46,244 bases of DNA from a bacterium. Its GTDB lineage: Bacteria > Verrucomicrobiota > Kiritimatiellia > RFP12 > CAIWXQ01. Below, in pieces: positions 15,701 to 46,244 of the stretch. The stretch is taken from the NCBI GenBank assembly GCA_037144015.1, contig JBAWXQ010000002.1:1-46244 (forward strand), given 5' to 3'. Each line of letters opens with the position of its first letter. Position 1 is the first letter of the stretch. A program made the position numbers and the translations under genes. Below the pieces are notes generated by a model, which was not told the DNA's origin, did not search any database, and saw only the letters and a program-made list of their open reading frames with translations.

Positions 15701-15971
15701 GCTGACCACGATAGGCCGAAAGGTTGAACTTCAGCCCGGTCACATCCTGATTCCCCTTGATCCGGATGGCGTTGTTCCCGCCCTTGTTGATCAACCACTC
15801 CTCCTGGCCGGAGGGGCCGGCGAACCAGCAGAACTGGTTGTCCGCGCTGTCCAGAACGGTGGTGATGTCCGCTCCGGGCGGCAGAATGAACCAGGCGTTG
15901 GCCGTGGCCACCGCAAGCAGGAGGCACAGGCCGGACAGCCAGCAGCAACGGAGTTCTTTTCTGGTATACAT
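12768..15971 (-). CDS. Secreted multidomain GH123/DUF4091-like glycoside hydrolase (DNRLRE-like + FN3 + barrel + short C-terminal beta domain)
   Basis: Signal peptide ending ATANA; FN3 (LTPGTNYAFFVQAYDAVGN); RNEVVGAQL, VDLNGYG, FRIDISD, RVKQMRQAQQIVE motifs; paralogue of 17663-20392. Confidence 0.75.
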   Translation of the reverse strand: MYTRKELRCCWLSGLCLLLAVATANAWFILPPGADITTVLDSADNQFCWFAGPSGQEEWLINKGGNNAIRIKGNQDVTGLKFNLSAYRGQRVVAAELHLARANPDLVTSLAAATINTDWAESSACWRYRSTSTDWTFTNSDFSTASFGNYGSLTSFGFSNSVTFRVYTTNSYTWIAMVLAPAVVNALILDQYGLAVTDPRLHSAFAGNPTIYTREQNSALQPRLYIQFAANTDFTAPAQVGGLAAVPAGEDGSVELQFTAPSDPDDANAFGYHVRYSTGDVFAAATDAERWRIPRPGAPGATQRVLLERLTPGTNYAFFVQAYDAVGNTGTPAKVRFTLPPPAYVPRLADGGLASPNPTGQTVRTAGGVLRYFGASEVAQINPATGNTIEDGYTGTGADNYKKANMVWNAASNTLFLAGCRNEVVGAQLILQRLGASLNEVGVTVSDLTATGGASIAASPNIERFQMHYIASGGSAYAEAAIPLAAPFPTTFNIPDANHNAGGTYQSVYLDFFIPPATAAGVYTGTVSVSAAALGAESPVRIGLQLRVSNVSIPDRISFEVDLNGYGNPWDFGADTTATCQQYFQTIHKHRATANTLAYNHAGAANYTDRRPDLTGNGPTLQASSWTAFDNKYGRYFTTNAAQSAFNATHGYTGPRVNTPVTRFYTTFNEMWPQSMLDTTYGFDAAGAGPAYWDGLRSAGNYTTLFPACPDVRTAFPIGYRQAQINVMSNWLAHASAAGWTQTAFENYLNDKYDYASTHSLWVLEENETADDFRATGRFQEMWRAGLAASGVTNVLWHFRIDISDRWGQHWGELDNRVNFVCMGAGAAGWHWPSKKYRRYGLDADKQEDWIWYGLGAPVAGSGTANARTFLQKWCQGFNGGLPYWDSYSTQWVNADDSTPCVVYSGQSVPGFGTYPGPIMSRRVKQMRQAQQIVELLNLWSACRGMNRSRVRDALNATYGQGTWDYAFGTLDEVKLYQLHAGLVAQLEAQPEPLKIARIDSAAGSSTVLYWPSMSNCTYTLLRSTNLVTGAFQSVISNVLANSPGNVYTDAPASYSAAFYKLLEQWY

Positions 15972-17405: not shown

Positions 17406-17662
17406 GTGTTCAGTTCCCACTCGTCGTACATCGCGGCAATGTTCGCGTAGAGGCTCTTGCAAAATTTTTCTTCGCCGGACGCGGCACCTACTGTGCCCGA
17501 AACCGATACGCTAGCAAATACAGCCGTGCTTTGTCTTTCAAAATACCCCCCCCGTTTCCCGATTGTGTGCGGGAGGAGCGGCAGGTTATGCTGCGGTCGC
17601 AGGTGGCCCTATGACGGGGCTACCTGAGTCGTTACGAATAATGAAAAAGTGGAGGCTGGGCG

Positions 17663-20392
17663 ATGACTGGCATACCCCGAACTGTTTCCTGTCCGTCAGT
17701 TGCTTCCACCACAATTACCTACGCCTGGGCCGGGCATCGGCACGAGTCCTGCGGCGGACGGGATGTCATTGGTCTGCGCGGTCTTTCCGAGATAGCCTTG
17801 TTGAAATTTGACCTTACCGCGATTGAGAGTATGCACCCGGTTGACGCAATTCTGCGCCTGCATCGTCCGGATGGCGCGCCCGGCGCGCTACCGGTTGTCG
17901 GCATCTCCACGATCCGAGCCGAATGGCATCCCGGCACCGCCAAGGATTACACACTCGATCCCGGTGCCTCCTCTTACGAATGGGCGCAAACCTGCGCCGA
18001 TTCCGCCGGGTGTGTACCATGGGCCGGCGCGGGAACAGCCATAACCGATGTCGCTTTCGGCAATGCGGGTTCCCGACGGACAGTCGTGGCTTTGCCGAAC
18101 CGGGGCGAACCGGACGAAAATGGCTGGTGGAGCATTCCGGTTCCAGGAAAACTTGTGGCACAGATGCAAACAGGGTTCGCCTGCGGGCTGGTGTTGATGG
18201 ATGAAAAAGGCCAGCGTGAGGTCAGAACAAGACCCCACTCGGTACATTCGGATTTTCCCCCTATGCTTGAAGTTGCGGCCGAGAAGCGCGGCGAGTCCTC
18301 CAAGCCGCCGCCCCTTGTAGCAGACTCACTCCGGCTCGCAGAAAACGGAGTTGTTCTGCTGGGTCAGCTGCAGAAGGCATTCGAACCGGCATTTGAGGTT
18401 TATGCTGAGTTCAATGATACTCCGCTGGAACTCTGGAGGTTGCCCTCTGTACCGGAGGAGTCTTCGTTCGGCCGAATCGATCTCTCCGGCATAACCGGAA
18501 AAGGCGGTGTACTGCGTGTTCAGTACGCAGCGATGGATGGCTCCAGGGGCGAACCGACATGGATCGCGGTACCCGCAAGCGTCACCGAACAGACGGAGTC
18601 TTTTGAGCCGCCTGAGGTTCCGTCGTACGAATTTCCTGCGCCGGATGTGGCGGTGGCGGTGCTTTTTCCGGGCGAGTCTCTTGACGAGGACGGCCTGAGT
18701 TTATCTGGCTCAAAGAGGCCGGCGATCTGGATCGACGGCCTGAGCCGGACGCTTTCTCTACAGGCCTTTCGCGGGGAGATACTGGATCTGAACATAGCAG
18801 GCCCGGGCGGAGCCGCGATCCATGTGCATGCACCCGGCTGGATTGAGACGACAATCGAAGCGGCGCGCTATGTCCTGCCGGGCCATGAAGGCGGGCGGCG
18901 TGTTCCCGATAGACTTGAGCCAGAAGGGCGCTTCGATCCAGGTGTCAAGGTAGGCCTTGTTGTTGTTGATCTGCTGATCCCGAAAACGGCCGTGCCCGGA
19001 AAGGCGCTTGTTGAAGTGCGAGTTGCCGGACGGGTTGTGCCGGTTGAGATCGAGGTGCTTGATGCAACGCTTGGCGATGCATTGGGTTTCGTTGTTGATC
19101 TGAACTCCTATGGACGCTTCGCAAGGTACTACGGGTTGAAAGTTGACGCCCCCGAGGAAGAGGAGATACAGCTGGCCTACCATCGTCTTGCGCACCGGCA
19201 TCGCTGCAACTTCAACGTACTCCCCTATACACAGATGGGCGATGTGTATCCGGACTGTGCCCCGGCGTTCAATGCCGAAGGGAGAATTGCAGACTGGCGC
19301 GGCTACGATGAGAGGAACGGTCCCCTTCTTGATGGCTCGGCTTTTGCCGGGTTGCCTCGTGCCGGAACGCCGGTGGCGATGTTTTATCTGCCGCTTTTCG
19401 AGGATTGGCCTGGCACCATGGAGCGTGATTACAGGGATCACGTTCCGATGGGCAATACAAAGGAAGAGTGGTTCGCGGCGCTGGCTGAGCACGCGATACG
19501 CGCGCGGCCGATCGCACAGGCATTTGCCCCGGGTTACGCAGGGCGGCTGGAGTGCGTCGCACGCGACTTTGCCGCGCATCTTCTTGAACGCGGCTGGACA
19601 AAGCCGGCCTACATCTCGTACTGGAACAACAAGCACCTTTACAAGGAACCCGCGCGAATCGAAGGACCCAACAAAATAACGCGGCAGACACGGGGCACGT
19701 CATGGTGGTGCCTGGACGAGCCGGTCACACGAGACGATTTTCTAGCGCTGAAATACTTTGGCGACCTCTGCCGGAAGGGTTTTGCCGCCGGCGGAGGCGG
19801 GCGCATGGATATACGCTATTGCATCGACATCTCCCGGCCGCAGTGGGATTTTGGTGAAATAGCCGGCACGCGCGACATGTTCCGCATCAGCTCCGAGTTT
19901 TTCCGGTTCAGGAAACTCGTCCGTCAGCGGCTTAGAGAGGGAACGTCGATCATCAATTACGGTGGCGCGCACTCACCTGCTGAGTTGCCGATGCACGAGA
20001 CACTATGGTGCTGGCGCGGGGCCTTGCTCGGCGCGGAGGGCGTGCTGCCTTGGTCGGCCACTCCCATGGAGGGTTTCAGCAACATGGACTGGCTGGAGGT
20101 CGCCGACCGCCTCTCGGTGCTGTGCCCGTCGGCGTACAAGCCCGGATCACCATGGGTCCTGCCAACGCTCCGGTTAAAGGCTTTCCGCCGCGGACAGCAG
20201 GACGCAGAGTTCCTGCTCGCGTGGAGCCGGAAGAACCCGAGGGCTTTCCCTGCCGTACTCGGCGTGTTGGCTCCGGATGGAGCGCCTGCCGGCCCGGAAG
20301 ATGCCGCCGTGCCGGTTCGCTTCAAGGATCCGTCGCCTCAAGTTATCGAAGCCTGCCGTTGCAAACTGCGTCGCAAGGCTGCCGGATGTTGA
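17663..20392 (+). CDS. GH123/DUF4091-like protein with N-terminal DNRLRE-like domain
   Basis: GGAGG RBS at 17651; LLKFDL, VDLNSYG, FYLPLFEDWP, WWCLDEP, IDISRPQW, LKAFRRGQQDAE; only plus-strand gene; no signal peptide. Confidence 0.75.
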   Translation: MTGIPRTVSCPSVASTTITYAWAGHRHESCGGRDVIGLRGLSEIALLKFDLTAIESMHPVDAILRLHRPDGAPGALPVVGISTIRAEWHPGTAKDYTLDPGASSYEWAQTCADSAGCVPWAGAGTAITDVAFGNAGSRRTVVALPNRGEPDENGWWSIPVPGKLVAQMQTGFACGLVLMDEKGQREVRTRPHSVHSDFPPMLEVAAEKRGESSKPPPLVADSLRLAENGVVLLGQLQKAFEPAFEVYAEFNDTPLELWRLPSVPEESSFGRIDLSGITGKGGVLRVQYAAMDGSRGEPTWIAVPASVTEQTESFEPPEVPSYEFPAPDVAVAVLFPGESLDEDGLSLSGSKRPAIWIDGLSRTLSLQAFRGEILDLNIAGPGGAAIHVHAPGWIETTIEAARYVLPGHEGGRRVPDRLEPEGRFDPGVKVGLVVVDLLIPKTAVPGKALVEVRVAGRVVPVEIEVLDATLGDALGFVVDLNSYGRFARYYGLKVDAPEEEEIQLAYHRLAHRHRCNFNVLPYTQMGDVYPDCAPAFNAEGRIADWRGYDERNGPLLDGSAFAGLPRAGTPVAMFYLPLFEDWPGTMERDYRDHVPMGNTKEEWFAALAEHAIRARPIAQAFAPGYAGRLECVARDFAAHLLERGWTKPAYISYWNNKHLYKEPARIEGPNKITRQTRGTSWWCLDEPVTRDDFLALKYFGDLCRKGFAAGGGGRMDIRYCIDISRPQWDFGEIAGTRDMFRISSEFFRFRKLVRQRLREGTSIINYGGAHSPAELPMHETLWCWRGALLGAEGVLPWSATPMEGFSNMDWLEVADRLSVLCPSAYKPGSPWVLPTLRLKAFRRGQQDAEFLLAWSRKNPRAFPAVLGVLAPDGAPAGPEDAAVPVRFKDPSPQVIEACRCKLRRKAAGC

Positions 20393-24649: not shown

Positions 24650-27406
24650 TCATTCCACTCTCAACGTTCCAAACTTCACCGGCTGGTGGCTGCTGCCCTC
24701 GGTCAGCGACCACTGCGAACTTTCACCGTCGGCATTGCGTACACGGCCGGCGTTAAAGCCAATCTCGGCACCCGGCTTGGGTTGCCCCATCAGGCCCAGC
24801 GTGGCCCATGGAATGCGGACCTCTACGGCCCACCCCTCTGGCGTGCGCTTGGCAGCGGCAGTCCAGTCCCCATTCCACGCCTTGTCGCCGTTGCGGCCGT
24901 CGTAGAGCATGCCGCCGGCAGAAACCGCGAAGTGGCGCTCCTCGCCGCTGCCCTTGACCGGCTCCACAAAAAACTCGATGCAGTCATCCTGCCAGACCTG
25001 ATCCGCGTCACGAGCATCTGCTTTGGCCACGATCGACTCCGGCTTCGGTTCCGGGCAGATGGCTGACAAGAACAGCGCATCCGGCCCCGCCAACGCAAGA
25101 ACCCGGGTGGCAACCTCCGATGCTCCGCTGCCGTTCTCCTTTTGAAACCCTGCGATCACGCCAGCCATCTTCCACGCCGCCTCGTCCGGCGCGCCGTTCG
25201 GTGTTCCGATTGCGGCACTCCGCGGCAGGGCTGCTTTCGGCCGCGCCGGGAGCGCCACCGTCAGTTTCGGCAGCAACGTCTCCGGCTGCATCATCGCCTG
25301 CGCTTCGATGCGTGAGATGACGGTCTTACCATCCGGAGCCACCACCACGATCGCGGGTACGCCCTCGACCCCGAACTCTGCCACTTTCTTTGGATACCGC
25401 TCCGCATCCACCTTCACCACCAGCATCTCGCCCAGAGCCTTGACCACGCGATCGTCCTTGAACGTGGTGGCCTCAACTTTCTTGCAGATGCCGCAGGTCT
25501 GCATGTAGAAGCGCATGACCAGCGGACGTTTCGTCAGCGCGGCCTGCTGCAGCGCCTGCTCAAGATCTTCGCCGGGCCGCGGGGCATAGGTCGGCGCCGG
25601 AGCCGCGCCGCGATAGGCAATCACCAGGGCCGGACGGAACGGGTAGTCGCCCTGCTCGCTGGACGCAATAGAACCACCGCCCATACCGCGCATCTGAAGC
25701 AAGATGCCGTAATTCGGCCGCGTCCCGGCTTGCCAGGCCTTGACCAGATCGGTCAGGACCAGGTCTACGAACCGAACGAGTTCGTTTCTGGCTTTGTCAG
25801 GGTAGCCGCGCATGGCTGTCGTGCTGCCGGCCGGTTTTGCATCCCGGTCAATCCCTTCACCCGCCGCGCCCTCCTGTGCCCACTTCTCAGAACGGAGTTT
25901 TCCACGGAAACGCGGACCGAACCAGCAGGCATAGCCATCCGGATTGTCCTGACACTCGTTCCAGGGCCGGCATAGGGCGTACGCCTCGAGGGTGTCGTTG
26001 GTTCCATAGGGTGCCCCCCCTTCGCCGCCACCGATCAGCGTCAGACGCAACCGCGCTCCGAGGATCGCAGTCTCCTTCGGCACGCCGGACAGGTCGAAGC
26101 GCAGGAGCGACCGGTTATCCGCGTAGTTCCACGGGCGGACACCGACGTAGAGCGCCGCATCCGTGCCGGTGTTGGCGTGACGCGCATCCCAGTCGCGGTT
26201 GTTCGGCAGCAACGTCGTGTCGGTCGCGGCGGCCGGAATCACGCGCTCCCCGTCGCGCAGCGTCGCGCGCTCGGCGGCGGTGTCAGCCCGGCGCAGGGTT
26301 GCGAATGTGGCATCAGGGAACTGCTGTTGCAAGGCCGAAAAGGCGGGATCGGCTACCGGGTTCGTCTCGAACGGATTCTCCACGGTCACCGGCCACACAA
26401 AATCCGCGCAACCGCCGAGTTCAGGCACCCGCAGCATGCGCACCACCACCTCGTGCGCGCCCGAAGGCACGCGGGAGGGCAGGATCATCTGCGGTGCAAA
26501 CCCGCCCGCACAGGGGCAGGAGTCACCGAACGGGATGATCTCCCGGAGTTGCCGCGTCGCGGGATCAAGGACGCGCAGCAGGACGATGGGGTATCCGGCC
26601 TTGCCCCAGCGGTTGTCCCGCACGGCCGCGGCCAGGGACGGGAACTTCGACCCGTAAAAGCGCAACTGCGCCCCCTCGGGCGTTCCGTGCAGCGCAAGCC
26701 ACACCGACGCGGCGACATTTTCGCCGGCCTTCCAGGTCCCGAGCGCTTCGCCCGCATGCTTGCCGTTCACGGTTGGGATCGGCTCGCCGCCGAACTTGTA
26801 CACCGGAGCGGTCGCAAGCGAACTGCCCCACAGGAGCTTGAGTTCACCAGGCAGGAGCCCGACATCGTAACTCAGCGCGGGTGAGGACATTCTGAAGGCG
26901 GAGTCGTACTCGATCACATCGGGTTTGTACACACCGGCAAAGCGGAAGGAGTAGACATGGTCGGAGCCGATCTCCTTGACGTTTTCCACCAGATAGCGTT
27001 CGTGCCGATCCTTTTCCTCCGTCCGCTTGGCCGGCTCGTTGCTCCAGAAGAAGCGCTCGCCCTCCTCGCCCAGAACGCCATTCAGGTTGGTGTCGGCGTA
27101 GAGTGTGTCATAGCCCTTGCCTGTGCCCTCCGACTCGTCCCACGCCAGGGTCATCACGGAACTCCGGCCGTTACCCAGGACAAAGATGCAGTAACGCACG
27201 TTGGCGGAGACATAGGCGGGTTCCTTCGGGCGTTTGCGCGGAACCCATGCCAGATCCGGCGGAATGAATGACGTCACGCGCGGGTACTCGGTCGGCGCGG
27301 CAGGGGCCAGCATCGGCATCAGGCAGGCTAGGGCTGTCAATGACAGGACGAATCGGTTTCGTCGGGGGGATTGATGCGTTTTGTTGTGCCGAATGGGCAT
27401 ATTCAC
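24650..27406 (-). CDS. Secreted multidomain protein: DNRLRE + thioredoxin-like (CGIC) + CBM9-like
   Basis: GTG start after AAGGA; signal peptide; RSLLRFDLSGVP (DNRLRE); FYMQTCGICKK...GVEGVPAI (Trx); DQVWQDDCIEFFV...GWAVEVRIPW (CBM9-like). Confidence 0.8.
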   Translation of the reverse strand: MNMPIRHNKTHQSPRRNRFVLSLTALACLMPMLAPAAPTEYPRVTSFIPPDLAWVPRKRPKEPAYVSANVRYCIFVLGNGRSSVMTLAWDESEGTGKGYDTLYADTNLNGVLGEEGERFFWSNEPAKRTEEKDRHERYLVENVKEIGSDHVYSFRFAGVYKPDVIEYDSAFRMSSPALSYDVGLLPGELKLLWGSSLATAPVYKFGGEPIPTVNGKHAGEALGTWKAGENVAASVWLALHGTPEGAQLRFYGSKFPSLAAAVRDNRWGKAGYPIVLLRVLDPATRQLREIIPFGDSCPCAGGFAPQMILPSRVPSGAHEVVVRMLRVPELGGCADFVWPVTVENPFETNPVADPAFSALQQQFPDATFATLRRADTAAERATLRDGERVIPAAATDTTLLPNNRDWDARHANTGTDAALYVGVRPWNYADNRSLLRFDLSGVPKETAILGARLRLTLIGGGEGGAPYGTNDTLEAYALCRPWNECQDNPDGYACWFGPRFRGKLRSEKWAQEGAAGEGIDRDAKPAGSTTAMRGYPDKARNELVRFVDLVLTDLVKAWQAGTRPNYGILLQMRGMGGGSIASSEQGDYPFRPALVIAYRGAAPAPTYAPRPGEDLEQALQQAALTKRPLVMRFYMQTCGICKKVEATTFKDDRVVKALGEMLVVKVDAERYPKKVAEFGVEGVPAIVVVAPDGKTVISRIEAQAMMQPETLLPKLTVALPARPKAALPRSAAIGTPNGAPDEAAWKMAGVIAGFQKENGSGASEVATRVLALAGPDALFLSAICPEPKPESIVAKADARDADQVWQDDCIEFFVEPVKGSGEERHFAVSAGGMLYDGRNGDKAWNGDWTAAAKRTPEGWAVEVRIPWATLGLMGQPKPGAEIGFNAGRVRNADGESSQWSLTEGSSHQPVKFGTLRVE

Positions 27407-27435
27407 GTTGCGTTTTCCTTTGTGTACGTGGTTCG

Positions 27436-30291
27436 TCATGGGTTCACGACAATGTCAAGTTCCTGGATGCCTTCGAGCGACGCCAACTCCGGCATGGCCA
27501 TGGTCCGGCCATTGATGCGCACGAAATCACTCTTCCGCTGACGCGCAGGCCGGATCGTCAACGTCAAGGGGATGCAACGATATCCCCCACCGGGACATGC
27601 CGCATGGATGACGCGCCGGAGCGTCAATCCGCTTTTCAGTTCAGCCGGCAGACGCGGCGTGACGCGCAACGCCGGGCGCCGGTCGTCGTGCAGCGCCAGT
27701 TCAAGCCCGGCAATATCCTGCAGGAACTCGACGATCCAGTCCGTTGACCCCGACAGACCGAAGTACATTCCCTTGCCGAAGTGCGGATCCGCCGCATCCG
27801 AGGCGTACGAGGTCGATGGCATCTCGAACGGTCCGGCCAGGGAGGCGTCGCGCATGGCCGAAACGATCGGCTTGAACTGCAACCAGGCGCGATCGGCCTC
27901 ACCGGGTGTGAGCATCCGGAATCGGTGCATCATCATCTGTCCGTGATGATACTCGCCATTTTCCGCGCAGCCCGCGGGCACGATGCCCATGCGACCGACC
28001 AGTCGCCGTGCGACCTCATCGTTGGAGACCGGCGGTTCGATCAGGCGTAGTCCGAGTTTCGGGTCGAACAGCAGGCGATCGCAAGTGTCCAACAGGCGCG
28101 CAGCTTTCCCCGCGGCGTCCGCGACCGGGGTCAGGTAGTCCCGTTCCACTTGCAGGAGGCGCATTCCGTAGGCCTGGGCCGTCAGATCCCGGCGTCGCGC
28201 GCCGTCGAAATCCGACCCGCTCATCGATCCCAGCGTGTAGCCATGAGCCCCCCGCGCGTAGTCGGGCAGCGACCCATCGGCGCGGCATTCGTGGATCGTC
28301 GTGATGAAGCCGGCATTCGTCCCATCCTCCCATGCAACCCGCATCAAGTTGCGCCGAATCGATTCGGCCAGGCGCCGCAGGCGCGGCAAGGCCGCCACCG
28401 GCCCCTCCCCGGCCGCTGCCATCGCCCGTGGCGCCTCCAGCAAGTCAATGGAGTTTACGAGGGCCAGGAAGACGTGGGCGCTGAGGCGCACCTGCACGCC
28501 CCGCCCCATGCCGCGCGTCGTGGCATCGCCGACCACCGACGTTCCGAACATGTCCAGCGGGTCGCACCAGTCCCCATACATCGCCTGCACCAGGCCGTAG
28601 GGAGAATCTCCGACCTGGCGCCCATACGCATCGAAGATCCCCACCAGCACATCGGCCACGCGCTGGCGCCGCTCGCCGCCCACGAGCCCGGATGTTTCGG
28701 GCGTTTCGGGACTTGTCAACCGGCCCGTCGTTACCGGTTCGTTCAGGATCGCCGTGTCCCCTGTTTCGCGCACATACAGATTGAGCGAGTCCACGAGCCA
28801 CACCGCGCTGTCGTTGTAGGGCCGGTTGTCGTTCCTGACCTCGACCGAACGGTCGTCCCAGCGGCTGGGATACTGCCGCGGGAACATGCCGTGCAGCTTT
28901 TCGACGCGCGTCAGCGGCGTTGTCCAGCGATGGTCGTCCGGCACGGTGTCGTACATGAACCCGAGCGCATGCACCAGGTCGGCGCGCACCGTTCCGGGAT
29001 CCTCTTTCATCTTCGGCCACATGTCCTGGGCGCGATCGCGCGTGCCCAGTTCGATGCCCTGCGCCATCTTCGCCCCGTGTGCGCGGCAGTTCTCGTATAA
29101 CTCCGCCACGCCCGTCCAAAGCGAACGCGCGTATTCCGCCATCACCCGCTGCCCCGGCAGTTCGATCGCAAAGGCCGGCTGCGACCGTTTGGCGGTGGCG
29201 CGAGCCGCATCCCGAAGCGTCCGCGCGACGCCCGGCGTCCGCGCGACCAGGCCGGCCGCGGCGGTCTTGAACGCCTTCGCGACGCGCGGGTAGTCCGGAT
29301 ACAAACATCCGCTTTGCCGGCGGAACCGCGCACACAAATCGGGGTCGGTCACGTAGAGCAGTTCCTGGAGCAGGCACGTGGACCGGCCGGGCGCGAGTTG
29401 CAGCGCGAAGCGATTTGCCGCGATCGTCGCGATCGAGAACCGGTTCAGTCGTGCCCCCGCCCCATCCCGCAGCCGCCCTTCGCGCACGGCCGCAGGCGAG
29501 CGCACGCTGCAGGCGGAATCGCCCACAAACGCAGTGTAATCGCACGTAGCCTCGCGCGCCCGCAGGCCGGCGACGAGTGCGCTGGAGACCCGCTTGGGCT
29601 GCATGATGTCGGTGTACGGCACCGACGCGGAAACGATCGTTTCCAGCGGCGACACCGGCATCCCGGTGTCGTACCAGATCTCCTTGTTGTACACGAACCG
29701 CTGCGTCCCATGCAGATTGAAGAAACTCCAGAGGTCGCCCGCCAGCGCCTTGCGGCCCGTGTTGCGAAGATAGAGCAGCCGCAGCAGCGCCGGACCAGTC
29801 GGCGTCGCGATAAGCTGGAATTTTACCGCGCTGCGGAACGCAATTCCCGGCAGAAACGTAACGTCCGCACAAAACCACATCGCGCGGCAGGGATCGCCGA
29901 GTTTGACCACGCGGAAGGCCGCCGGTTCAATCCCGCAACCGTCGCGCGGGCTGACGAGCGACGCGACGACCGACCGACGACCGTCAGGAACCCGCAACCA
30001 TAAATTATTCGAAGGCACGCCGGTCTCCCGCTTCTCGGTGGCGTCGAAATGGCCTGACAACACAGAAACATCCATGCCGCCTGCCAGTTTGACATCGAAA
30101 GCGATCGAGCCGTTGGACATAAATGTCGCCTTGCCCGAACCCGCCGTGCTGACCAGAACCGACGGGCACCCGTCCGGCTGACCGTCATAGATCACCTCAC
30201 CGCCGGGGCCGTATCCCCCCAGTTTGTGGACACGCGCGTCCGGTTCCAGGCTCAGTATCCGCTCGGCTTCGGTGACAAAAGTCTTGTTCAT
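27436..30291 (-). CDS. Divergent GH94-like glycoside phosphorylase
   Basis: GTRDRAQD, GDWCDPLD, ENGEYHH, LSGSTDW correspond to GH94 GFRD..QD, DWND, ENG..F.H, LTGS..W. Confidence 0.75.
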   Translation of the reverse strand: MNKTFVTEAERILSLEPDARVHKLGGYGPGGEVIYDGQPDGCPSVLVSTAGSGKATFMSNGSIAFDVKLAGGMDVSVLSGHFDATEKRETGVPSNNLWLRVPDGRRSVVASLVSPRDGCGIEPAAFRVVKLGDPCRAMWFCADVTFLPGIAFRSAVKFQLIATPTGPALLRLLYLRNTGRKALAGDLWSFFNLHGTQRFVYNKEIWYDTGMPVSPLETIVSASVPYTDIMQPKRVSSALVAGLRAREATCDYTAFVGDSACSVRSPAAVREGRLRDGAGARLNRFSIATIAANRFALQLAPGRSTCLLQELLYVTDPDLCARFRRQSGCLYPDYPRVAKAFKTAAAGLVARTPGVARTLRDAARATAKRSQPAFAIELPGQRVMAEYARSLWTGVAELYENCRAHGAKMAQGIELGTRDRAQDMWPKMKEDPGTVRADLVHALGFMYDTVPDDHRWTTPLTRVEKLHGMFPRQYPSRWDDRSVEVRNDNRPYNDSAVWLVDSLNLYVRETGDTAILNEPVTTGRLTSPETPETSGLVGGERRQRVADVLVGIFDAYGRQVGDSPYGLVQAMYGDWCDPLDMFGTSVVGDATTRGMGRGVQVRLSAHVFLALVNSIDLLEAPRAMAAAGEGPVAALPRLRRLAESIRRNLMRVAWEDGTNAGFITTIHECRADGSLPDYARGAHGYTLGSMSGSDFDGARRRDLTAQAYGMRLLQVERDYLTPVADAAGKAARLLDTCDRLLFDPKLGLRLIEPPVSNDEVARRLVGRMGIVPAGCAENGEYHHGQMMMHRFRMLTPGEADRAWLQFKPIVSAMRDASLAGPFEMPSTSYASDAADPHFGKGMYFGLSGSTDWIVEFLQDIAGLELALHDDRRPALRVTPRLPAELKSGLTLRRVIHAACPGGGYRCIPLTLTIRPARQRKSDFVRINGRTMAMPELASLEGIQELDIVVNP

Positions 30292-38203: not shown

Positions 38204-40597
38204 CTATCCCATCTCGACAACCACCTGAATGACATTCGCCCCCGGCTGATGCGGAATGAGCGTGCCCGGCACGCGCACGCCGTCCACACGCACCTGCCGT
38301 ACACCCTTCATCACGCCATCCGGATTGCGCACGGTGATACGGTAGGTCACGCCACGGAAGACACGTGTGATCTCGAACCGCTTCCATGCGCGCGGGACGC
38401 AGGGGTCAATCCGCAGCCCGTCGAACTCAGGGCGGCAGCCGATGATGTGCTGCAGTGCGCCGATGGCCATCCAGGCGGCGGAGCCGGTGAGCCAGGCATT
38501 GCGACCGCGGCCAACGATGTGGAAGGGCGGCTGCGACACGAACTGGCACATCACATAGGGCTCGACCTCGTGCCGCTCGGCGGCGCGGCTCTTGCCGGCG
38601 GCGCAGAGGCGCTTGAAGTATTCCAACGCCTTGTCGCCGCGCCCCAGCGTCGCCTCGGCGGCAACCATCCAACTCGCCGCGTGGTGGAAGACCGAACCGT
38701 TTTCCTTGATGCCCGGAGGATAGATGCCGGCCGAGCCGATCTCCTCCATATCGAAGCGCGCGAAGGGGCGGTCCATGATCCTGTGCCCGTACGGGCTGCC
38801 CAGCCGCTGCTCCACATTGTCCAGTGCCTTGCGGGCCCGCGGGCCGGTGGCATAGCCGGCCATGACAGCCCAGGGTTGCGGTTCCAGGAAAATACGCCCG
38901 TATTCCGGCGTGCGTTTGGACCCGAGGACCAGACCATCCGTCTTGATCAGCCGCTTGTACCAGGCGCCATCCCAGCCGGACGTGTTGATGCGGCGGCCAA
39001 CCTCCGCGTAGCGGCGTTCCAGGGTGCGCGCATAGGCGGTGTCGCCGCGCCGACGGGCCAGTTCCAGTAAGGCATGCGTGGAGGCGCCATAGAGCGCCGA
39101 CGTGAACACGCTCTCGCTCTTGCGGTCGCCGGGGTTGAGCGAGTCGTTCCAGTCCGCGGCGCCGATTTGCAGCAGACCGTGTTTGCCGCGCAGGCGGAAC
39201 GCCAGATCGTTACAGCGCTGCAGGTGTTCGTACACCGTTCCCTTTGCCTTGGAGAGCGCATAAGGCAGAACCTTGTCCAGGAACGCGAGGTCGCCCGTCT
39301 CTTTGACATATTGATTCACGGTCATGGCCGGCCAGTTGTGATCGTCGTAAAACCCGTTGGCGCCCCAGGACCTGGTCAGCGGGTTGAAGTCGTGGCAGGC
39401 CGAGCCGTCCTCACGGATCGCGGAGATGATCTTTTCGATCATCTCCCGCGCGACTTCAGGGAAGGCGTGGGTGAGCCCCATCTGGTCCTGCGAAGAATCG
39501 CGGAAGCCGATCGAGCGGCCAATGCCCCACTCGTAGGATGAGATCGAACGCGACAGGCGCATGGTCACGGCGGACTGGTACTGCACGAAGCCGTTAACAA
39601 GCGTGTCAAACTCAGGATCCGGGGTGTGGACGACGAAGCGCGAGAGGCGCACGTCCCACCCGGCCTTGAGCGCCGCGAAGGCGCGATCCACTTTCTGCAG
39701 CGTGTCGTAGCGGCGGGCATCCTGCCGCCACGTCCGGTCGCTCGCGCTGATGCCGGTGCGGTAGGCGATGCGCTTGCTCTGGCCCGGCTTGAGCGTGAAA
39801 CGATGTTCGAGCGAGCCGATCGGGTAGCCGCCGTTCTCGCAGTAGTTGGTCGAGCGGCCGGCCTCAACCGCGGCCGGATTGCGCTCGTCGCGGTAGCGGC
39901 CGATAAACCGGTCGCGGTCGCCGTTGTAGCCGTACGGCTTCTCCGAACTGACATGATAACCGCAGTTCTGCACGAAATGCATGTCGTGCAGGCCGGAGCC
40001 GACATCGTTGTAGCTGTAGTGGAGGATGGCGCCATTTTCATGCCGCTGGCGGGAGACGTTCGGGCAGTTGTCGATGTTCATGAGGTCGCGCATGGCGCCC
40101 CAGAAGGCGAACTCGGCGTAGCTGAAGGTCGAGAGCCGGCGCGTCTTGCGCGAGAGGTTGGTCACCGTCAGATCCCAGATCTCCAGCCGCCCCTCGGGCG
40201 GCACGAAGTACGTGATCTCCGTGCGGATGCCCTCATGTTCCATGGCGATGACGGAGTACCCGGTTCCCACGCGGCAGGTGTAGCGGCAGTCGCTGACGGG
40301 CATGTGCACGGGCGCCCAGGTGCTCGACCAGTATTTGCCGGAATCGCGGTCCCGCAGGTACACATAGCGTCCCGGCCGGTCGTACGGCACGTTCTGGTAG
40401 CGGTAGCGCAGCAGGCGGTAGACGCGCGGGTCGGTGTCGTAGCTCACCCCGCCGCCGGTGTTGGAGATCATGGCGACGTAGCTGCCATTCATCAGGTAGT
40501 TGAACCACGGGCGCGGCGTGTCCGGCCGCGTGATCACGTACTCGCGGGTCTGAGGGTCGAAGTAGCCGTAAGGGCCTTTGGCAGTCGGATTCATCAT
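38204..40597 (-). CDS. GH94 glycoside phosphorylase (cellobiose-phosphorylase-like)
   Basis: YGYFD...EYVITRPDTPRPW, RYRYQNVP, GIGRSIGFRDSSQD, ADWNDSL, YPPGIKENG, WLTGSAAW; AAGGAG RBS before 40597. Confidence 0.92.
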   Translation of the reverse strand: MMNPTAKGPYGYFDPQTREYVITRPDTPRPWFNYLMNGSYVAMISNTGGGVSYDTDPRVYRLLRYRYQNVPYDRPGRYVYLRDRDSGKYWSSTWAPVHMPVSDCRYTCRVGTGYSVIAMEHEGIRTEITYFVPPEGRLEIWDLTVTNLSRKTRRLSTFSYAEFAFWGAMRDLMNIDNCPNVSRQRHENGAILHYSYNDVGSGLHDMHFVQNCGYHVSSEKPYGYNGDRDRFIGRYRDERNPAAVEAGRSTNYCENGGYPIGSLEHRFTLKPGQSKRIAYRTGISASDRTWRQDARRYDTLQKVDRAFAALKAGWDVRLSRFVVHTPDPEFDTLVNGFVQYQSAVTMRLSRSISSYEWGIGRSIGFRDSSQDQMGLTHAFPEVAREMIEKIISAIREDGSACHDFNPLTRSWGANGFYDDHNWPAMTVNQYVKETGDLAFLDKVLPYALSKAKGTVYEHLQRCNDLAFRLRGKHGLLQIGAADWNDSLNPGDRKSESVFTSALYGASTHALLELARRRGDTAYARTLERRYAEVGRRINTSGWDGAWYKRLIKTDGLVLGSKRTPEYGRIFLEPQPWAVMAGYATGPRARKALDNVEQRLGSPYGHRIMDRPFARFDMEEIGSAGIYPPGIKENGSVFHHAASWMVAAEATLGRGDKALEYFKRLCAAGKSRAAERHEVEPYVMCQFVSQPPFHIVGRGRNAWLTGSAAWMAIGALQHIIGCRPEFDGLRIDPCVPRAWKRFEITRVFRGVTYRITVRNPDGVMKGVRQVRVDGVRVPGTLIPHQPGANVIQVVVEMG

Positions 40598-40713
40598 GGA
40601 CTCCTTTGACATCACTCCGTTCTGTCAGAGTTGACAGTACGTCTACTTCTCTAACACTTGTCTTTGCAAGGGGTTGGCGGTCTCTCCGCCTTCTCCCCCC
40701 TTTCCTGTCCATT

Positions 40714-40803: not shown

Positions 40804-41559
40804 CTACCCGTGATGGTCATTACTCTTCTTGTTGCTCGCGCACCACGCGTGAAGCATCGATACGATCCTCGCTTGCATGGCTTTGCCGTCTACCACGCGA
40901 GAGGCGGTCATCTCACCGCGTGCAACCATCAGGTCGAGCGAGAGGAGGGTTTGGAAGGCATGTTCTTCAGCCAACTTCATGAACCGATTCTGATCCGCGA
41001 CACTCGACCGCCCATGGCCTTCGGCTATGTTCAGAACCGTGCCTGTGGTGCTCTCGTCCAGCTTTCGTCTTCTCCTCCTCTGTGCCAACTTCTCCAGAAG
41101 GCCGTGAGTCCACCGCACGGACTCCACAGAAACCCTGTACATATCAAGTTCCATAAACGGGAACCTCGGACTGCCGTATGAGGCAGATTCCTCGCGGACC
41201 TGGCCAACGCGTGCTCGCTTCAGTCCAAGCAGCATTCCACGTATTCGCCATAGTCTACCCATGCAGGCTGCATAAGCGTCTTCGTTGATGGCGCTCTTGG
41301 CCATGCACACATCCAGCGAAGCTGCGCACTCGTGCGCGGAGGCGATGGACACGTCCAACCAGGCTGAACGCTGCGCCGAATCGGGGGCATGCACGTTCGC
41401 TTGCATGAAATTCACCCCAATGCTCTCCATCGCTCTGTCCAGATGGTCAAACACCGCGATCGGCTGCTCAGCGCCTGAAATGATGTCGCCGCATTGGCCG
41501 GCGACCTCCAGATAGACTCTGTAGAGGTCAAGGCGCTCGTGAGATAACTCCGTTTGCAT
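40804..41559 (-). CDS. Tandem (two-domain) four-helix-bundle protein, 23S rRNA IVP / TIGR02436-like
   Basis: Two repeats: HERLDLYR...HLDRAMESIGVNFMQA...SAHECAASLD and FMELDMYR...KLDESTTGTVLNIAEGHGR; VREESASY linker; lower GC. Confidence 0.85.
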   Translation of the reverse strand: MQTELSHERLDLYRVYLEVAGQCGDIISGAEQPIAVFDHLDRAMESIGVNFMQANVHAPDSAQRSAWLDVSIASAHECAASLDVCMAKSAINEDAYAACMGRLWRIRGMLLGLKRARVGQVREESASYGSPRFPFMELDMYRVSVESVRWTHGLLEKLAQRRRRRKLDESTTGTVLNIAEGHGRSSVADQNRFMKLAEEHAFQTLLSLDLMVARGEMTASRVVDGKAMQARIVSMLHAWCASNKKSNDHHG

Positions 41560-41729: not shown

Positions 41730-44700
41730 TCACTCGCCACCCTTTCGGGCGGCGGACATGCGCATCACGGGGACGCCGACGGGAACGCGCCGTTCGGCCG
41801 TGTAGTTGCGTTCTCCATACCGCCGGGCCTGGTCATAATAGGAGACCTCGACATAGCCGCCGGCCACCACGGGCAGGGCATTGTTCGTTGCGTCACGCTC
41901 TTCGTCCGGCAGCACTTCGACGGTGTCGACGCTCCCCTCGAAAACGCCGCTGCTGACCTCGGTCTCGCGCAAATAACCGACCAGTGCCTGACCCGCGCTG
42001 CTTGCAAACTTCACCTTGATTTGATTGCGGACGTGTGGATCGGTATTCATGTCGGCATCGGCGATGCGCACGCCCAGCGGTTCTCCCGGGATGATCGCCG
42101 CCAGGGATTCCGCGGTCTTGCCGGGTTTCACGGCGGTGATCGCCGCGTCCGATCCCAGCAGGACCAGGTCGCCCCAGACGCTCGGGGTCATGGACGCCTG
42201 CTTGCCGAGTTCCGTGGTCCACCAGAAATAGGCATTGTCGCCGTTGTCGGTGCTGTAGTCGAAGGCGATGATCCGGCCCGGCGTCAGGTTCGGCTTCCGC
42301 AAGCGGGCCACCGGCATGAAGATTTCGACCTGGTAGCCCCGGGGATTCGCGGTGCGCTTCATGGCCATGCGGGGAGCTTCAGGCGCGGTGTTGTTGGCGC
42401 GAAACAGTTCGGTGCGGGTCCCCGGCATGATCATCTCCCCTCCCATTATTCCCGGCTCGCGGCGGGACCCCAGGGGCCAGAACCAGAACTGCTGCTGGTC
42501 CTCCTGGCGGATATCGCTGCGGCGATTGCTGAGATCGAACCACAGTTCCAGGCAATCGCCCTCCCAGAAGTTCTTCCGGTCGATGTTGGTATCGTCCTCA
42601 TCGTCCACCATCTGGTAGGCGAAGTAGAACCCGCTGTAGTCCCATTGCACCATGATATAGCGGTTGGTCTCCCAGGCCGCGGGAATGGGCTTGCTCCAGT
42701 GGGCCTTTTCGATGACGCCGCGGAGCGCGAACGGCCGCACGCCCGCCCATTCGGCCAGGTCGCCATCGATGGTCGGCGGGTTGGTCGCGAACGGCGCCCC
42801 GCCGTAGGCGAACGTCTTGAACTCGGGCGGCGCCAGCGTACGTTCGGCCTTAACCAGGGCATTGGTCGGCGCCTGCGTTCGGTCGCGGCGGGAGCCGACC
42901 AGGATGAGCGACGGCCGATTCGACGCGATCTCGGCGGTGGCGACCGAGATCGCATTGGTCAGCGACGGCGCCAGCAGCACGACCTCCTTCACCTCGCGCC
43001 CCTGGATCACCGTCTCGAGGTTCTTGCGGTATTCCGAGGGATTCTCCAGGAATCCGCGGCTGCGGCGGCTGCTCACGCCGGCCTTCAGCGTCTGCCCAAG
43101 TCTGGCCAGGTTGTCGCTCATGCCCGCGATTAACGTCTCGCGCCCGCCGGTCGAGAGGGAGCGCATCGCGCCGCCCCTTGCGTCCGCCATCCGCTGGCGC
43201 AGGGAGTCGGTCTGGCTCTCGCCGAACGACTCGGCGCCCGGCAGGCGGAGCGAGGATTTCGCGCTAACACTGAGGGCGCTCTGCGTGCCGGCCTTGAGCG
43301 ACTTGGCGAGCGAGTTTTCCAGCGCCTGGCCGACCGCGTCCATGCCGGTGTCGTCCCCGGCGGATTCGGCAGCCTGCGCGCCCGTCGTCTCCGGGCCCTT
43401 CTTCTTCCGGTTCTTTATCTTTCCTTTGCTTGCGCCATCCTTCGGCGTGCCGCCAGAGGCCTCAGCCTCGTCGCCGCTCGTTTCGTTTGCATCCGCGTTG
43501 TCTTCGGCGGCCAGTTTCCGGCGCACGGCGTCCGGCTTGACACCAAACTGCTTCGCCGTCTGCCCCATCATCTCGGCGAAGGCGTTGTCGAGCAGATTGG
43601 ATTCGCTCCCCGTGAGGAGTAGATCGGCGGCCTGCTGACCCACGCGCCTGACGAAGCTTTCGTCCTTCTCCATTCCCTTCCTGGCGAGCACCTTCCCCAC
43701 CAGGTCCTCGGCCTTGGCGCGGAACTCGGTGGCGACTTTCTCGCGCAGCGCCTGGCGCACGAACTCGCGCGTTTTCTCCCGCAACGCCGGATCCTCGGTA
43801 AGGGCGGCATCCACGGTCTCGACGAAATTGCTTTCGAAGCGCTGGGCCGCGCCGCCCAGGAGGTTTTTTTCGCTCGCGATCTGGCGCGACAGGTCGGAAA
43901 GGCGGTTGGTGGCGGCCACCATGTCGCGCTGCGCGATGGAGATCTCCATACGCCCCGGCCGCGGTCCGGATTGGGGGACCTGCGGGTCAGCGGGTTTCGC
44001 TGTCAAGGCGTCGGCAGCGTGCGTCACCGCCGTTTCGCCCGTATCGCGGACATCCTTCGCCGTCTGCTCGATCGCGCGGCTGGTCTGCGTCTCGGACCCC
44101 TTGTCGGCGGCCGCGGCGGCCTTCGCCAGGTGAGCCTGCGCGGTATTCAGCGTCTTCATGATCGCATCCATGCTGCCGCGCGCCGTGCCGGCGGACTTGA
44201 CTTCTTCAGCCGTCGGCCCGCCGATCATGCTTGAGAGTTCGCTGCGCGTGCGCGTCAGGTCGTTTACGAGGTTGGAGATCGCGGCGCGGCTCTGTGCGCT
44301 GGACTGCAGGGCCGCCGCGATGCTGTTGGCGGCTGTCAGATCCTTGGCCCGTTGCACGGGCCCGGCCACAACCGCATCGGTCTGGCGGGCCGCCGCGGCG
44401 AGCGCGTCGGCGACCGGCTTCTCGGCCTTGTCGGCCAGTGGCGCGGCTGTGCCGCGCAGATCCCGGGCCGCGCCATCGAGCGCGGTGCGGATCGCCTCCT
44501 GCGCCTCCGTTGCGCCCGTCCGGGCGGCCGAGGCTTCGCGCTGGGCGGCGCGCCGGCCGGCATCGGCCTGGAGCGAAACCGCCGCGACCGCCTGGGCGTT
44601 CGCCATGGCCTTGTCCAGAAGGTTTGTCGCGTTACTCGCGGCTGTGAGCGCCGCGGCCGCAGCCTTGGCCACGGCGGCATTGGTGCTGGCGGCAGCGGTC

Positions 44701-45875
44701 GTGAGCGACTTGGCCGAGTCGGCGACCGCGCGGGCGCTGTCCGCCAGAGCGGAGGCGGCCTTCTCGGAGGCCGTGGCGGCTTTGGCGGGGTCATTGCCCT
44801 GGAGAGACGCGGATGCGGCCTTGACCGCGTCATTGGCGGTCTTCGCGGCCGCGGCCGCGGCGGCGAACCCGGCTTTGGCGTTAGCCGCCTGGGCCTGCCC
44901 GGCCTGGGTCGCGGCTTCCTGGAGCGCCGCCAGCGCGCCGGCCAGCGACTTCTCGACATTGGCCTGGGCACCGGCCGCCTCCTTGAGTCGTGCATCGCTT
45001 TTTGCGGCGCTCTCGTCGGCTGCGGCCTTGGCGGCGAGATCCTTGTCCAGCGCGGCGGTCTGGCGCGCCGCCTCGGCGGCCGCCCGCAGGGCCTTCTCCA
45101 CGCTGGCATCGGCCTTGGCGGCGGCGTCCGCGCGCTTGCGGTTCTCGCCCAGCGTCCGCGCGAGATCCTCGCCAATGGCCGCGCTCTGGGTTTTGGCCTG
45201 GTCGATCTGCTGTTGCGCCTGTGTCAGGCCAGTGGTTGCGGCGGTGAGTTCCTTCTGGCGGCGGGCGCGCTCCTCGGCCAGGAGTTTATCCACCTCGCCG
45301 CGCGCCTTTTGGCTTTCCGCCTGGCTCATGAGTTCGCGGGTCTTCTGGTTGAACTCCGGCAGGGTCGCGGCGACACCGGACAACACCTGCGCGGCGATCT
45401 CGTCTTTGGTCTGGTCGCCCAGTTCGGCCATCAGCGCGTCGATCGCGGTTTCCCGCAGGCCGCGCATGGCCGCCTCCAGGTCGGCCGGCGTCAACTCCGA
45501 CAGGTTCTTCATGGCGAGTTCGGATGCGCTGGCCTCGATGTTCGTCTGCAGGGCGGCCAGCGAGTTGGTCCAGAACGATTCGAACGTGGCGGGCGCCAGA
45601 TCGCCGGCCGCCCTGCGAATATCCTCCTTGAGCGCCTTGGCCAACTCCTTCCTGACCTCCTCGCGGGCCGCTTCCTGCGCGATCTTCTCCGCGGCCCGTT
45701 GTTTCATGAGCATGACCTGCTCATCCGAAACCGGTTCCTCCTGCTTGCGAAACAGACCGAGAAGGGAGGGAACAACGATCATCCCCACCAGCGCCACGTG
45801 CAGGACAATCGAGATGCCGATGAACACCCGCAAGGGCGTGCTCATGACGGGGCGGGTTGGTTTGTCAGGGCTCAT
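41730..45875 (-). CDS. Giant TonB/TolA-like membrane-anchored coiled-coil protein with C-terminal CBM9-like domain
   Basis: N-terminal TM with S22/H26/I33/S37 (SHLS spacing); long Ala-rich helical region; PPTIDGDLAEW...FWEGDCLELWFD...GYQVEIFMP; directly downstream of exbD. Confidence 0.8.
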   Translation of the reverse strand: MSPDKPTRPVMSTPLRVFIGISIVLHVALVGMIVVPSLLGLFRKQEEPVSDEQVMLMKQRAAEKIAQEAAREEVRKELAKALKEDIRRAAGDLAPATFESFWTNSLAALQTNIEASASELAMKNLSELTPADLEAAMRGLRETAIDALMAELGDQTKDEIAAQVLSGVAATLPEFNQKTRELMSQAESQKARGEVDKLLAEERARRQKELTAATTGLTQAQQQIDQAKTQSAAIGEDLARTLGENRKRADAAAKADASVEKALRAAAEAARQTAALDKDLAAKAAADESAAKSDARLKEAAGAQANVEKSLAGALAALQEAATQAGQAQAANAKAGFAAAAAAAKTANDAVKAASASLQGNDPAKAATASEKAASALADSARAVADSAKSLTTAAASTNAAVAKAAAAALTAASNATNLLDKAMANAQAVAAVSLQADAGRRAAQREASAARTGATEAQEAIRTALDGAARDLRGTAAPLADKAEKPVADALAAAARQTDAVVAGPVQRAKDLTAANSIAAALQSSAQSRAAISNLVNDLTRTRSELSSMIGGPTAEEVKSAGTARGSMDAIMKTLNTAQAHLAKAAAAADKGSETQTSRAIEQTAKDVRDTGETAVTHAADALTAKPADPQVPQSGPRPGRMEISIAQRDMVAATNRLSDLSRQIASEKNLLGGAAQRFESNFVETVDAALTEDPALREKTREFVRQALREKVATEFRAKAEDLVGKVLARKGMEKDESFVRRVGQQAADLLLTGSESNLLDNAFAEMMGQTAKQFGVKPDAVRRKLAAEDNADANETSGDEAEASGGTPKDGASKGKIKNRKKKGPETTGAQAAESAGDDTGMDAVGQALENSLAKSLKAGTQSALSVSAKSSLRLPGAESFGESQTDSLRQRMADARGGAMRSLSTGGRETLIAGMSDNLARLGQTLKAGVSSRRSRGFLENPSEYRKNLETVIQGREVKEVVLLAPSLTNAISVATAEIASNRPSLILVGSRRDRTQAPTNALVKAERTLAPPEFKTFAYGGAPFATNPPTIDGDLAEWAGVRPFALRGVIEKAHWSKPIPAAWETNRYIMVQWDYSGFYFAYQMVDDEDDTNIDRKNFWEGDCLELWFDLSNRRSDIRQEDQQQFWFWPLGSRREPGIMGGEMIMPGTRTELFRANNTAPEAPRMAMKRTANPRGYQVEIFMPVARLRKPNLTPGRIIAFDYSTDNGDNAYFWWTTELGKQASMTPSVWGDLVLLGSDAAITAVKPGKTAESLAAIIPGEPLGVRIADADMNTDPHVRNQIKVKFASSAGQALVGYLRETEVSSGVFEGSVDTVEVLPDEERDATNNALPVVAGGYVEVSYYDQARRYGERNYTAERRVPVGVPVMRMSAARKGGE

Positions 45876-45878
45876 GTT

Positions 45879-46244
45879 TTACAGCTTCTGCTCCGGTTCG
45901 CCCGGTTCGACTTGGAAACTCACCTGTTCCACGCCGGCGTTGATCACCGCATTCCAAACCTGAACGATGCGCTCGTATCTCGCGGCGCCATCGCCGACAA
46001 TCACCACCGTGGGCTTCTTCTTGGCGGCCTCGCACGTCTTCAGGTACGTCGTTAGGTCCGTGACCAGATCCGGAATCCGGCGGTAGCGCTCTTCCTTGCT
46101 GCCGGCCTTGTTCTTGAGCACGTACCCCTCCGCGGTGACAGTGATCAGGTGGGCATCCTCGATGTTGATGGACTGTGTGGCGGCGGCCCGCGGGATATCC
46201 ACTGCCAGACCCTCCTTCAACGTCGGCGCGGTGATCATAAATAT
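45879..46244 (-). CDS. exbD: Biopolymer transport protein ExbD/TolR (5' end outside the window)
   Basis: IFMITAP...LAVDIPRA, VVIVGDGAARYERIVQVWNAVINAGVEQVSF. Confidence 0.9.
   Translation of the reverse strand: MFMITAPTLKEGLAVDIPRAAATQSINIEDAHLITVTAEGYVLKNKAGSKEERYRRIPDLVTDLTTYLKTCEAAKKKPTVVIVGDGAARYERIVQVWNAVINAGVEQVSFQVEPGEPEQKL

Follow-up and report, generated by a model that had tools for sequence, protein, structure and literature searches.

To our knowledge, TonB and TolA were for a long time the sole known carriers of proton-motive energy from motors of the ExbBD/TolQR type to the outer envelope, and we know of no settled answer to the question of how bacteria of the Planctomycetes-Verrucomicrobia-Chlamydiae (PVC) superphylum, which lack SusC/D, take up large polysaccharides. 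Here we describe a gene of 1381 codons plus stop (positions 41730..45875, minus strand) near the end of a 46,244-nucleotide stretch of DNA from a bacterium of the Kiritimatiellia; this stretch, referred to below as the window, is an entire contig (C2; JBAWXQ010000002.1) of a metagenome-assembled genome (MAG; 3.2 Mb, 440 contigs, 89% complete). We propose that the encoded protein, hereafter the giant protein, is probably a TonB/TolA-type periplasmic force transducer with a new class of head and a role in glycan handling. The parts of this proposal differ in strength: that it is a TonB/TolA-like transducer with a swapped head is well supported, while a nutrient polysaccharide as the ligand, with energised capture or handling as the function, is the most likely reading and also the weakest step.

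The two classical systems each resemble the giant protein in some respects and depart from it in others. Like TolA of the Escherichia coli Tol-Pal system, it has an N-terminal helix with a Ser-x3-His motif, a gene that follows a motor pair of probable tolQ/tolR type, and a long Ala-rich helical periplasmic domain, but its stalk is about four times longer and of variable length, it has no TolA/TonB_2 C-terminal domain, no tolB-pal genes lie downstream, and its distribution is patchy. With TonB of the ExbB-ExbD-TonB system it shares the anchor motif, the ExbBD linkage and the anchor-spacer-head layout, but its spacer is not rich in proline, it lacks a TonB_C domain, and the canonical TonB of the same genome is encoded elsewhere, on contig C155. 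Hence the giant protein belongs to neither the TonB nor the TolA family because the defining head domains are missing.

A closer precedent is provided by the vWA-headed "motor-driven force transducers" (Mol Biol Evol 2025; PMC12204202), which according to the main text of that paper have a TolA/TonB-type helix, are linked to tolQR genes and are also found in PVC bacteria. They are like the giant protein in having a conserved-His helix beside tolQR-like genes and a head other than that of TonB, and differ in that the giant protein carries a CBM9-fold and an Ig-like domain as its head, in that its stalk has ~1000 rather than ~100 residues, and in that its gene module, compared with the one described in that main text, includes no TPR gene and no tolR pair. 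The idea of a head-swapped transducer has therefore already been published for vWA heads, and the CBM9 head represents a new class, insofar as the term "CBM" is absent from the main text of PMC12204202, the supplements of which might list further head types. Our literature search found no paper that links CBM9 with ExbD, TolQ or TolA.

Anchor, stalk and head of the giant protein

A short basic tail (residues 1-16) precedes the transmembrane anchor, a hydrophobic helix of residues 17-39 (45759..45827, minus strand) that carries S22 (45810-45812), H26 (45798-45800), I33 and S37. This is the spacing that the original prediction, made from the DNA alone, had recognized as that of the SHLS motif, and motifs of the SHLS type are described in the main text of PMC12204202 as the means by which TolA and TonB bind their motors. 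We surveyed the anchor in 120 family members of at least 700 amino acids, from which seven multi-repeat giants that match only the Ig-like domain had been excluded. A start methionine and a clear hydrophobic helix are present in 99 of them, and of these 90 have Ser-x3-His and five have the His with Ala at -4, giving a conserved His in 95/99 (and in 17/18 members of the first homologue set); the lack of conservation that the original prediction had named as a refutation was thus not observed. The remaining 21 proteins are mostly truncated, although six still show S-x3-H within a weaker helix. The profile around the His (n = 95) has F at -8 (62/95), S at -4 (90/95), a hydrophobic or aromatic residue at +7 and P at +10 (43/95), from which the family motif can be written as F(-8)-x3-S(-4)-x3-H-x6-hydrophobic-x2-P(+10). 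In alignment A3, the rows of which were picked for having the motif, H26 is the sole invariant column of the first 200 residues. The predicted SHLS motif has held up in its Ser-His part and in its hydrophobic position but not in its final Ser, since the residue at +11 (S37) is found in only 11/95 members, all of them close relatives. In one family member (L032:7433-11107), Gly replaces the His and an N-terminal zinc-ribbon-like segment is present, and yet its gene follows an exbB-exbD-exbD set and the gene for a LamG protein.

The stalk is close to the Ala-rich helical segment of roughly 950 residues that had been predicted. Residues 45-1030 contain 23% Ala and few prolines; a count of 28 Pro over residues 41-1040 sets the spacer apart from the proline-rich one of TonB. 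It can be divided into a conserved helical region directly after the anchor (residues 40-200; 45276..45758, minus strand), seen in the consensus of alignments A1, A2 and A3 and with W102 and L140 nearly invariant; an Ala-rich part of variable length (residues 201-640; 43956..45275, minus strand; 33% Ala); and a conserved helical or disordered region before the head (residues 641-1022; 42810..43955, minus strand), which is defined by AlphaFold2 (AF2) and the A2 consensus and includes a charged linker at ~790-830. An AF2 run on residues 640-1381 gave helices with pLDDT values of 56-81 up to ~760 and low-confidence helices and linkers from ~760 to 1010, with no further globular domain between ~640 and the head, and an ESM Atlas search with residues 640-1029 returned no usable match. 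Family members range in length from 709 to 1584 amino acids, and the stalk is not a fixed ruler because length varies even between close relatives (1226 to 1522 amino acids). A single straight helix of 990 residues, with a rise of 0.15 nm per residue, would be about 150 nm long if fully extended. As this far exceeds an ordinary periplasm, the stalk must be folded back on itself, cross a periplasm of enlarged width, or extend outward.

At the C-terminus the original prediction had placed a CBM9-like domain (about 42160-42780) and a further beta domain in place of a TonB C-terminal domain, and all three elements were confirmed. With the full protein as query, CBM9_1 is the only Pfam match at E ≤ 1 (27.4 bits against a cut-off of 23.4, residues 1068-1240); at this threshold there is no match to TonB_C (PF03544), TolA or TonB_2, and NCBIfam gives no match whatever. 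Two domains are seen when residues 990-1381 are modeled with AF2 on the basis of 22 sequences (pLDDT 82, pTM 0.79). The first, residues 1023-1241 (42153..42809, minus strand), has the CBM9 fold, with CBM9-2 of T. maritima (1i82_A) matched by Foldseek at E 1.9e-10 and by VIA at Z 19.8 (rmsd 2.5 Å, 181/189 residues, 20% identity), and the relationship extends to the sequence level (E 9.5e-7). DOMON-type haem subunits also appear among the fold matches (2ivf_C, Z 11.5; 7b04_C, Z 11.2; both by VIA), which raises the question of whether the head binds haem or another cofactor, as do the gamma subunits of ethylbenzene dehydrogenase and nitrite oxidoreductase, such that the giant protein would be a redox or electron-transfer component. 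Given that true CBM9 domains match far better in both structure and sequence, and that the conserved gene module includes no redox partners, a cofactor-binding head seems highly improbable.

The second domain, residues 1242-1368 (41772..42152, minus strand), is an Ig-like beta-sandwich with a "D-x-D-M-N-x-D" motif that is closest to an S-layer repeat of Nitrosopumilus maritimus (8c8k_A; VIA Z 14.7, rmsd 2.0 Å over 115 residues; sequence-level E 1.1e-7). Tandem arrays of 15-32 copies of this Ig-like domain occur in P0025 (6140 amino acids), P0027, P0039, P0062 and P0157, which are apparently surface or S-layer-type proteins and share only this domain with the transducer.

Whether the CBM9-fold domain binds sugar is a separate matter from its fold. 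According to the available text of PMC8280721, TmCBM9-2 clamps its sugar with Trp71 and Trp175, and the clampless CkCBM9.1 bound none of the natural carbohydrates tested. The head is like the CBM9 modules of xylanases (TmCBM9-2, 1i82; CkCBM9.3, 7nwo) in its fold, its Pfam family (PF06452), its equivalent of Trp71 and its Glu in "W-E-x-D-x-x-E". In the hidden Markov model alignment to 1i82, the Trp71 position is occupied by an invariant Trp (W1104), and a neighboring Glu (E1110) and a Gln are kept. The head differs from the xylanase modules in that it is not appended to an enzyme, in that Ser1228 aligns with Trp175, although the alignment of this loop is uncertain, and in that a conserved, family-specific "FWFWP" run (1130-1134) lies on the next strand near the site. 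The fold and the Pfam match are those of CBM9, but the description of the head as sugar-binding is less certain: in this alignment only the Trp71 position of the clamp is kept, and carbohydrate binding in a modified CBM9 site is possible.

The motor genes and their linkage to the giant gene

The gene immediately upstream, on the same strand, encodes the 3' part of an ExbD/TolR-like protein (121 codons plus stop, 45879..46244; Pfam ExbD, E 8e-12) and is cut by the contig end. The gap of 3 bp between the two genes that had been noted is correct as to the junction (ExbD stop TAA, then "aac", then the ATG of the giant gene), although the window contains only part of exbD. Database gene calls start instead at a second in-frame ATG (M11; P0002, 1371 amino acids), which would widen the gap to exbD to 33 nt and shift the numbering by 10, with the motif unaffected. 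The remainder of exbD is supplied by contig C131, which overlaps the end of the window by 55 nt and carries the first 53 exbD codons (C131:1-160, same strand), including the transmembrane Asp in "PMVDVML". Directly upstream, where a motor partner had been expected, C131 has exbB (C131:174-938), a 254-aa gene of the MotA/ExbB family (Pfam, 119.6 bits), preceded on the same strand by a gene for a secreted 936-aa protein. The junction of C131 and C2 is not an assembly accident because a single 9.2-kb metagenome contig from a close relative (L087) has exbB, exbD and the giant gene in this order; its ExbB is 90% identical to that on C131, and the two halves of the split ExbD correspond to a contiguous 156-aa protein there, with 87% and 95% identity. 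For the giant gene itself, the closest public relative is in a Kiritimatiellia MAG, with a head that is 85% identical. The DNA of the window is present in eight DNA runs, from freshwater or lake metagenomes, and no RNA run is listed as containing it.

The family was delineated by searching the head against 1.84 billion representatives, which gave 623 representative clusters at E ≤ 1e-3, of which 139 pass E ≤ 1e-30, the initial homologue set having comprised 22 proteins. Among the matches listed, the head is nearly always at the extreme C-terminus of proteins of 700-1600 amino acids. Of 121 genomes sampled from the class, nine had some match at E ≤ 1e-10, and a match across the head was found in four (the source genome, G025, G039 and G099). 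The giant family is an accessory trait with a patchy distribution over four PVC phyla.

For motor linkage, 31 loci were searched with profiles built from the ExbB and ExbD copies of the genome itself, as tblastn alone missed many ExbBD neighbors. Both ExbB and ExbD are encoded beside the giant gene in 13/31 loci. The motor genes come before it in L018, L019, L021, L030, L079 (genome G099) and L087, and also in L032 with one gene between; they come after it in L020, L022, L025, L038, L040 and L078 (genome G039). These 13 loci are from Kiritimatiellia, Lentisphaerota, Verrucomicrobiota and Planctomycetota, together with one bin labeled Alcaligenaceae; among the Verrucomicrobiota is the cultured strain Cerasicoccus maritimus NBRC 105382, in which the homologue occupies L022:8246-11101 and exbB-exbD come next. 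All loci with heads at least 44% identical and with enough flanking sequence have adjoining ExbB/ExbD genes.

No ExbBD genes lie within the fetched flanks of the other 18/31 loci, and this is one observation in favor of regarding the giant protein as a passive tether or scaffold anchored in the inner membrane, for example a periplasmic lectin on a long leash that would retain glycans or enzymes close to the membrane, with no energetic coupling and with the Ser-His helix as a mere anchor. The high variability of stalk length (709-1584 amino acids) would fit such a role, and the contact with the motor is a prediction from sequence and gene order; a complex prediction with two ExbD periplasmic parts and residues 38-200 of the giant protein scored 0.00 and is no evidence either way. 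However, a mid-membrane His in 95/99 members, accompanied by Ser(-4) in 90, would be difficult to account for in a plain anchor; the motor genes remain neighbors of the giant gene across four phyla although the order changes (before or after it); and the 3-nt gap to exbD suggests co-translation. Ten of the 18 motor-less loci (L026, L029, L031, L033, L034, L036, L037, L041, L042 and L044) are paralogues from one Planctomycetaceae MAG, none with ExbBD in the fetched flank, and such paralogues recall, by analogy, the situation of multiple TonBs that may be served by one motor. We consider a purely passive tether quite unlikely. Most of the ten paralogues keep a Ser/Ala-x3-His helix, which in them follows an Arg-rich "WRRKWRR" N-terminal tail.

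Relationship to the Tol and Ton systems of the genome

In its sequence scores, the motor encoded next to the giant gene is closer to the Tol type than to the Exb type. The best NCBIfam match of the ExbB is TolQ (TIGR02796, 183 bits, cut-off 221) versus 119 bits for ExbB, and none of the other six ExbB-like genes in the genome matches TolQ as well. Likewise, the 121-aa fragment of ExbD is matched best by TolR (TIGR02801, 60.2 bits, cut-off 127) versus about 20 for ExbD. In the ExbB tree, the protein groups with the Tol-linked ExbB of the relative G039 (support 94/91, on a long branch), while 14/23 branches of the ExbD tree are open. One could therefore argue that the giant protein is a TolA paralogue that acts in envelope maintenance, in which the head grips peptidoglycan, an outer-membrane lipoprotein or its glycan and serves in outer-membrane tethering or constriction rather than nutrient capture. 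The stalk, which in composition is like domain II of TolA, would be in keeping with this.

The organism nevertheless appears to have a Tol system apart from the giant protein. Contig C207 (L066 1401-5142) encodes a tolA-like gene (277 aa, Pro-rich, with a weak TonB_2 match) directly followed by tolB-like, two pal-like and tatC genes. No tolB/pal genes are downstream of the giant gene, where a 23S_rRNA_IVP gene and a GH94 gene are located. C207 ends about 195 nt before the tolA-like start, ahead of any tolQR, and one motor could be shared between the two systems. G039, however, has a tolQ-tolR-tolB cluster and a separate giant-exbB-exbD cluster, and because of these two genomes the giant protein is not simply the TolA of the organism. 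In addition, neither the TolQ nor the TolR score reaches its equivalog cut-off (221 and 127 bits, respectively), a gene family found in 4/121 genomes of the class is ill-suited to a core envelope function, and the gene context is catabolic. Hence, a TolA paralogue devoted to the envelope is in our view an unlikely explanation.

Two further systems of the same kind are present in the genome. The canonical cluster of TonB-dependent transporter, ExbB, ExbD and TonB genes is on C155 and holds the one TonB_C domain of the genome; no TonB-dependent transporter is found among the scanned open reading frames (ORFs) of the window, and the three to four such genes of the genome are elsewhere. Contig C13 encodes a 961-aa TPR protein, a 443-aa protein, a TolQ-like and two TolR-like proteins and a 488-aa protein with an "SFALH" helix and a weak VWA_2 match (L067:1412-2878, which is G000:C13:21411-22877, and genes up to C13:28903), and this set is a representative of the vWA-headed class as described in the main text of PMC12204202.

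CAZyme-rich neighborhood and proposed function

The giant gene heads a long same-strand gene cluster that extends to about nt 970. The first carbohydrate-active enzyme (CAZyme) in it is a GH94 phosphorylase-like protein (38204..40615, minus strand; Pfam GH94, 369 bits), followed in order by URO-D-like, DUF5107/TPR, sulfatase, GH42-like and GH94-like proteins, a protein with thioredoxin-like, CBM9_1 and CBM96 domains, two GDSL esterases, a GH123-like protein, ORFs matching M28 plus N-acetyltransferase and WD40 plus MFS, and a GH42 protein. The secreted 936-aa protein encoded before exbB is distantly GH123-like, and a profile made from it detects four strong secreted paralogues, at 12771-15971 (minus strand) and 17645-20389 (plus strand) of the window, at L065:1214-4024 (minus strand) and at G000:C160:1815-6035 (minus strand). 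These are all the strong GH123-like copies that the genome has, and they are clustered around the motor-transducer module on contigs C160, C131 and C2, which are linked in this order.

Since a Pfam-family census proved unusable, as the picking of longest ORFs takes antisense ORFs in GC-rich loci, the neighbors of the homologues were checked one by one. The conserved module consists of three genes only, and the flanks differ even between close relatives. Homologues of the GH123-like family recur: L044 has one next to its giant gene (32% identity over 963 aa), L032 has one at its edge, and in L037 the giant gene is directly followed by a GH123_cat gene. Also recurring near homologues are a DUF5107/TPR gene directly before exbB (L087), a GDSL esterase gene before exbB (L018) and an N-acetyltransferase gene upstream of exbB (L019). 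In the Planctomycetota branch, a secreted protein of ~870 amino acids with a C-terminal LamG (ConA-like lectin) domain is encoded beside the giant gene in nine loci (L044:5256-7877, L026:1928-4621, L032:4827-7427 and six further Planctomycetota loci) and is a candidate partner of the giant family in that branch; no homologue of it was found in the source genome. The CAZyme context favors a glycan-related role, and a job in polysaccharide handling is the most likely one because the giant gene opens a cluster of glycoside hydrolase, sulfatase and esterase genes and because GH123-like genes recur beside its homologues.

We propose the following mechanism. By analogy with TonB, TolA and the vWA class, the anchor helix would dock on the ExbB pentamer, and proton flow through ExbB5-ExbD2 would move the anchor and tense the stalk and, with it, anything bound by the head. 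The ligand of the lectin-type head would be a glycan or glycoconjugate, held either within the periplasm or at the outer membrane, and the motor could thereby pull on, release or reposition it. That a motor might act on a glycan directly, as an alternative to SusC/D, had been suggested in the original prediction and remains an inference. The sensing function that it had offered as the other option is unlikely, and we rejected a sensor because the cytoplasmic part has only ~16 residues and no output domain. A secreted adhesin was rejected as well, given the conservation of the helix with the His as an anchor.

Several observations weigh against the proposed transducer and its glycan-handling role. 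The His is lacking in 4/99 anchored family members and the final Ser of the SHLS motif in most; by alignment, only one of the two clamp Trp residues is kept in the head; and the match across the head is sparse within the class. In addition to the loci with no adjoining motor and the grouping of the ExbB with a Tol-linked protein, both considered above, the giant-linked ExbBs do not form one clade, most of the others being elsewhere in the tree. PVC genomes are generally rich in CAZymes, and part of the gene context could be due to chance. Finally, an outer-membrane partner was sought, and no outer-membrane component is conserved beside the giant gene among the neighbors checked.

If the transducer reading is correct, the family adds to the transducers of ExbBD/TolQR-type motors a head with a carbohydrate-binding fold on an exceptionally long stalk, in four PVC phyla. 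It would be a concrete candidate for energised glycan capture in these bacteria, with CAZyme clusters, a cultured member and a residue, His26, the mutation of which should uncouple the system. Even if the ligand is structural, it would mean that this type of motor is reused with interchangeable heads. A bolder version is a proton-driven "winch", in which the lectin head would catch a glycan chain, either at the outer membrane or outside it, and the motor would then reel in the stalk, thereby energising the uptake of large glycans, and in which the Planctomycetota members and their LamG partner might be part of the apparatus of dextran-binding fibers and crateriform structures. Such fibers, at the crateriform structures of Planctomycetes, and connections between the outer and cytoplasmic membranes are described in the available text of PMC5394234, with their components given as unknown. 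Nothing in the present data ties the giant family to crateriform structures, and we put forward the winch as a speculation with a small chance of being right.

Other genes of the cluster are of less direct relevance. The next gene downstream of the giant gene (40804..41559, minus strand), which sits between it and the GH94 gene, encodes a 251-aa protein of the 23S rRNA-intervening-sequence family (PF05635) with two matched stretches and is not conserved beside the giant-gene homologues. The 929-aa protein with CBM96, thioredoxin-like and CBM9_1 domains (24653-27439, minus strand) has a CBM9_1 domain of its own that is only remotely like the transducer head (E 0.13). The 833-codon ORF at 7466-9964 (minus strand) has WD40 repeats followed by a match to an MFS transporter and could represent either a fusion or two genes run together; in L018 and L023, too, WD40 proteins adjoin the homologues of the giant gene.

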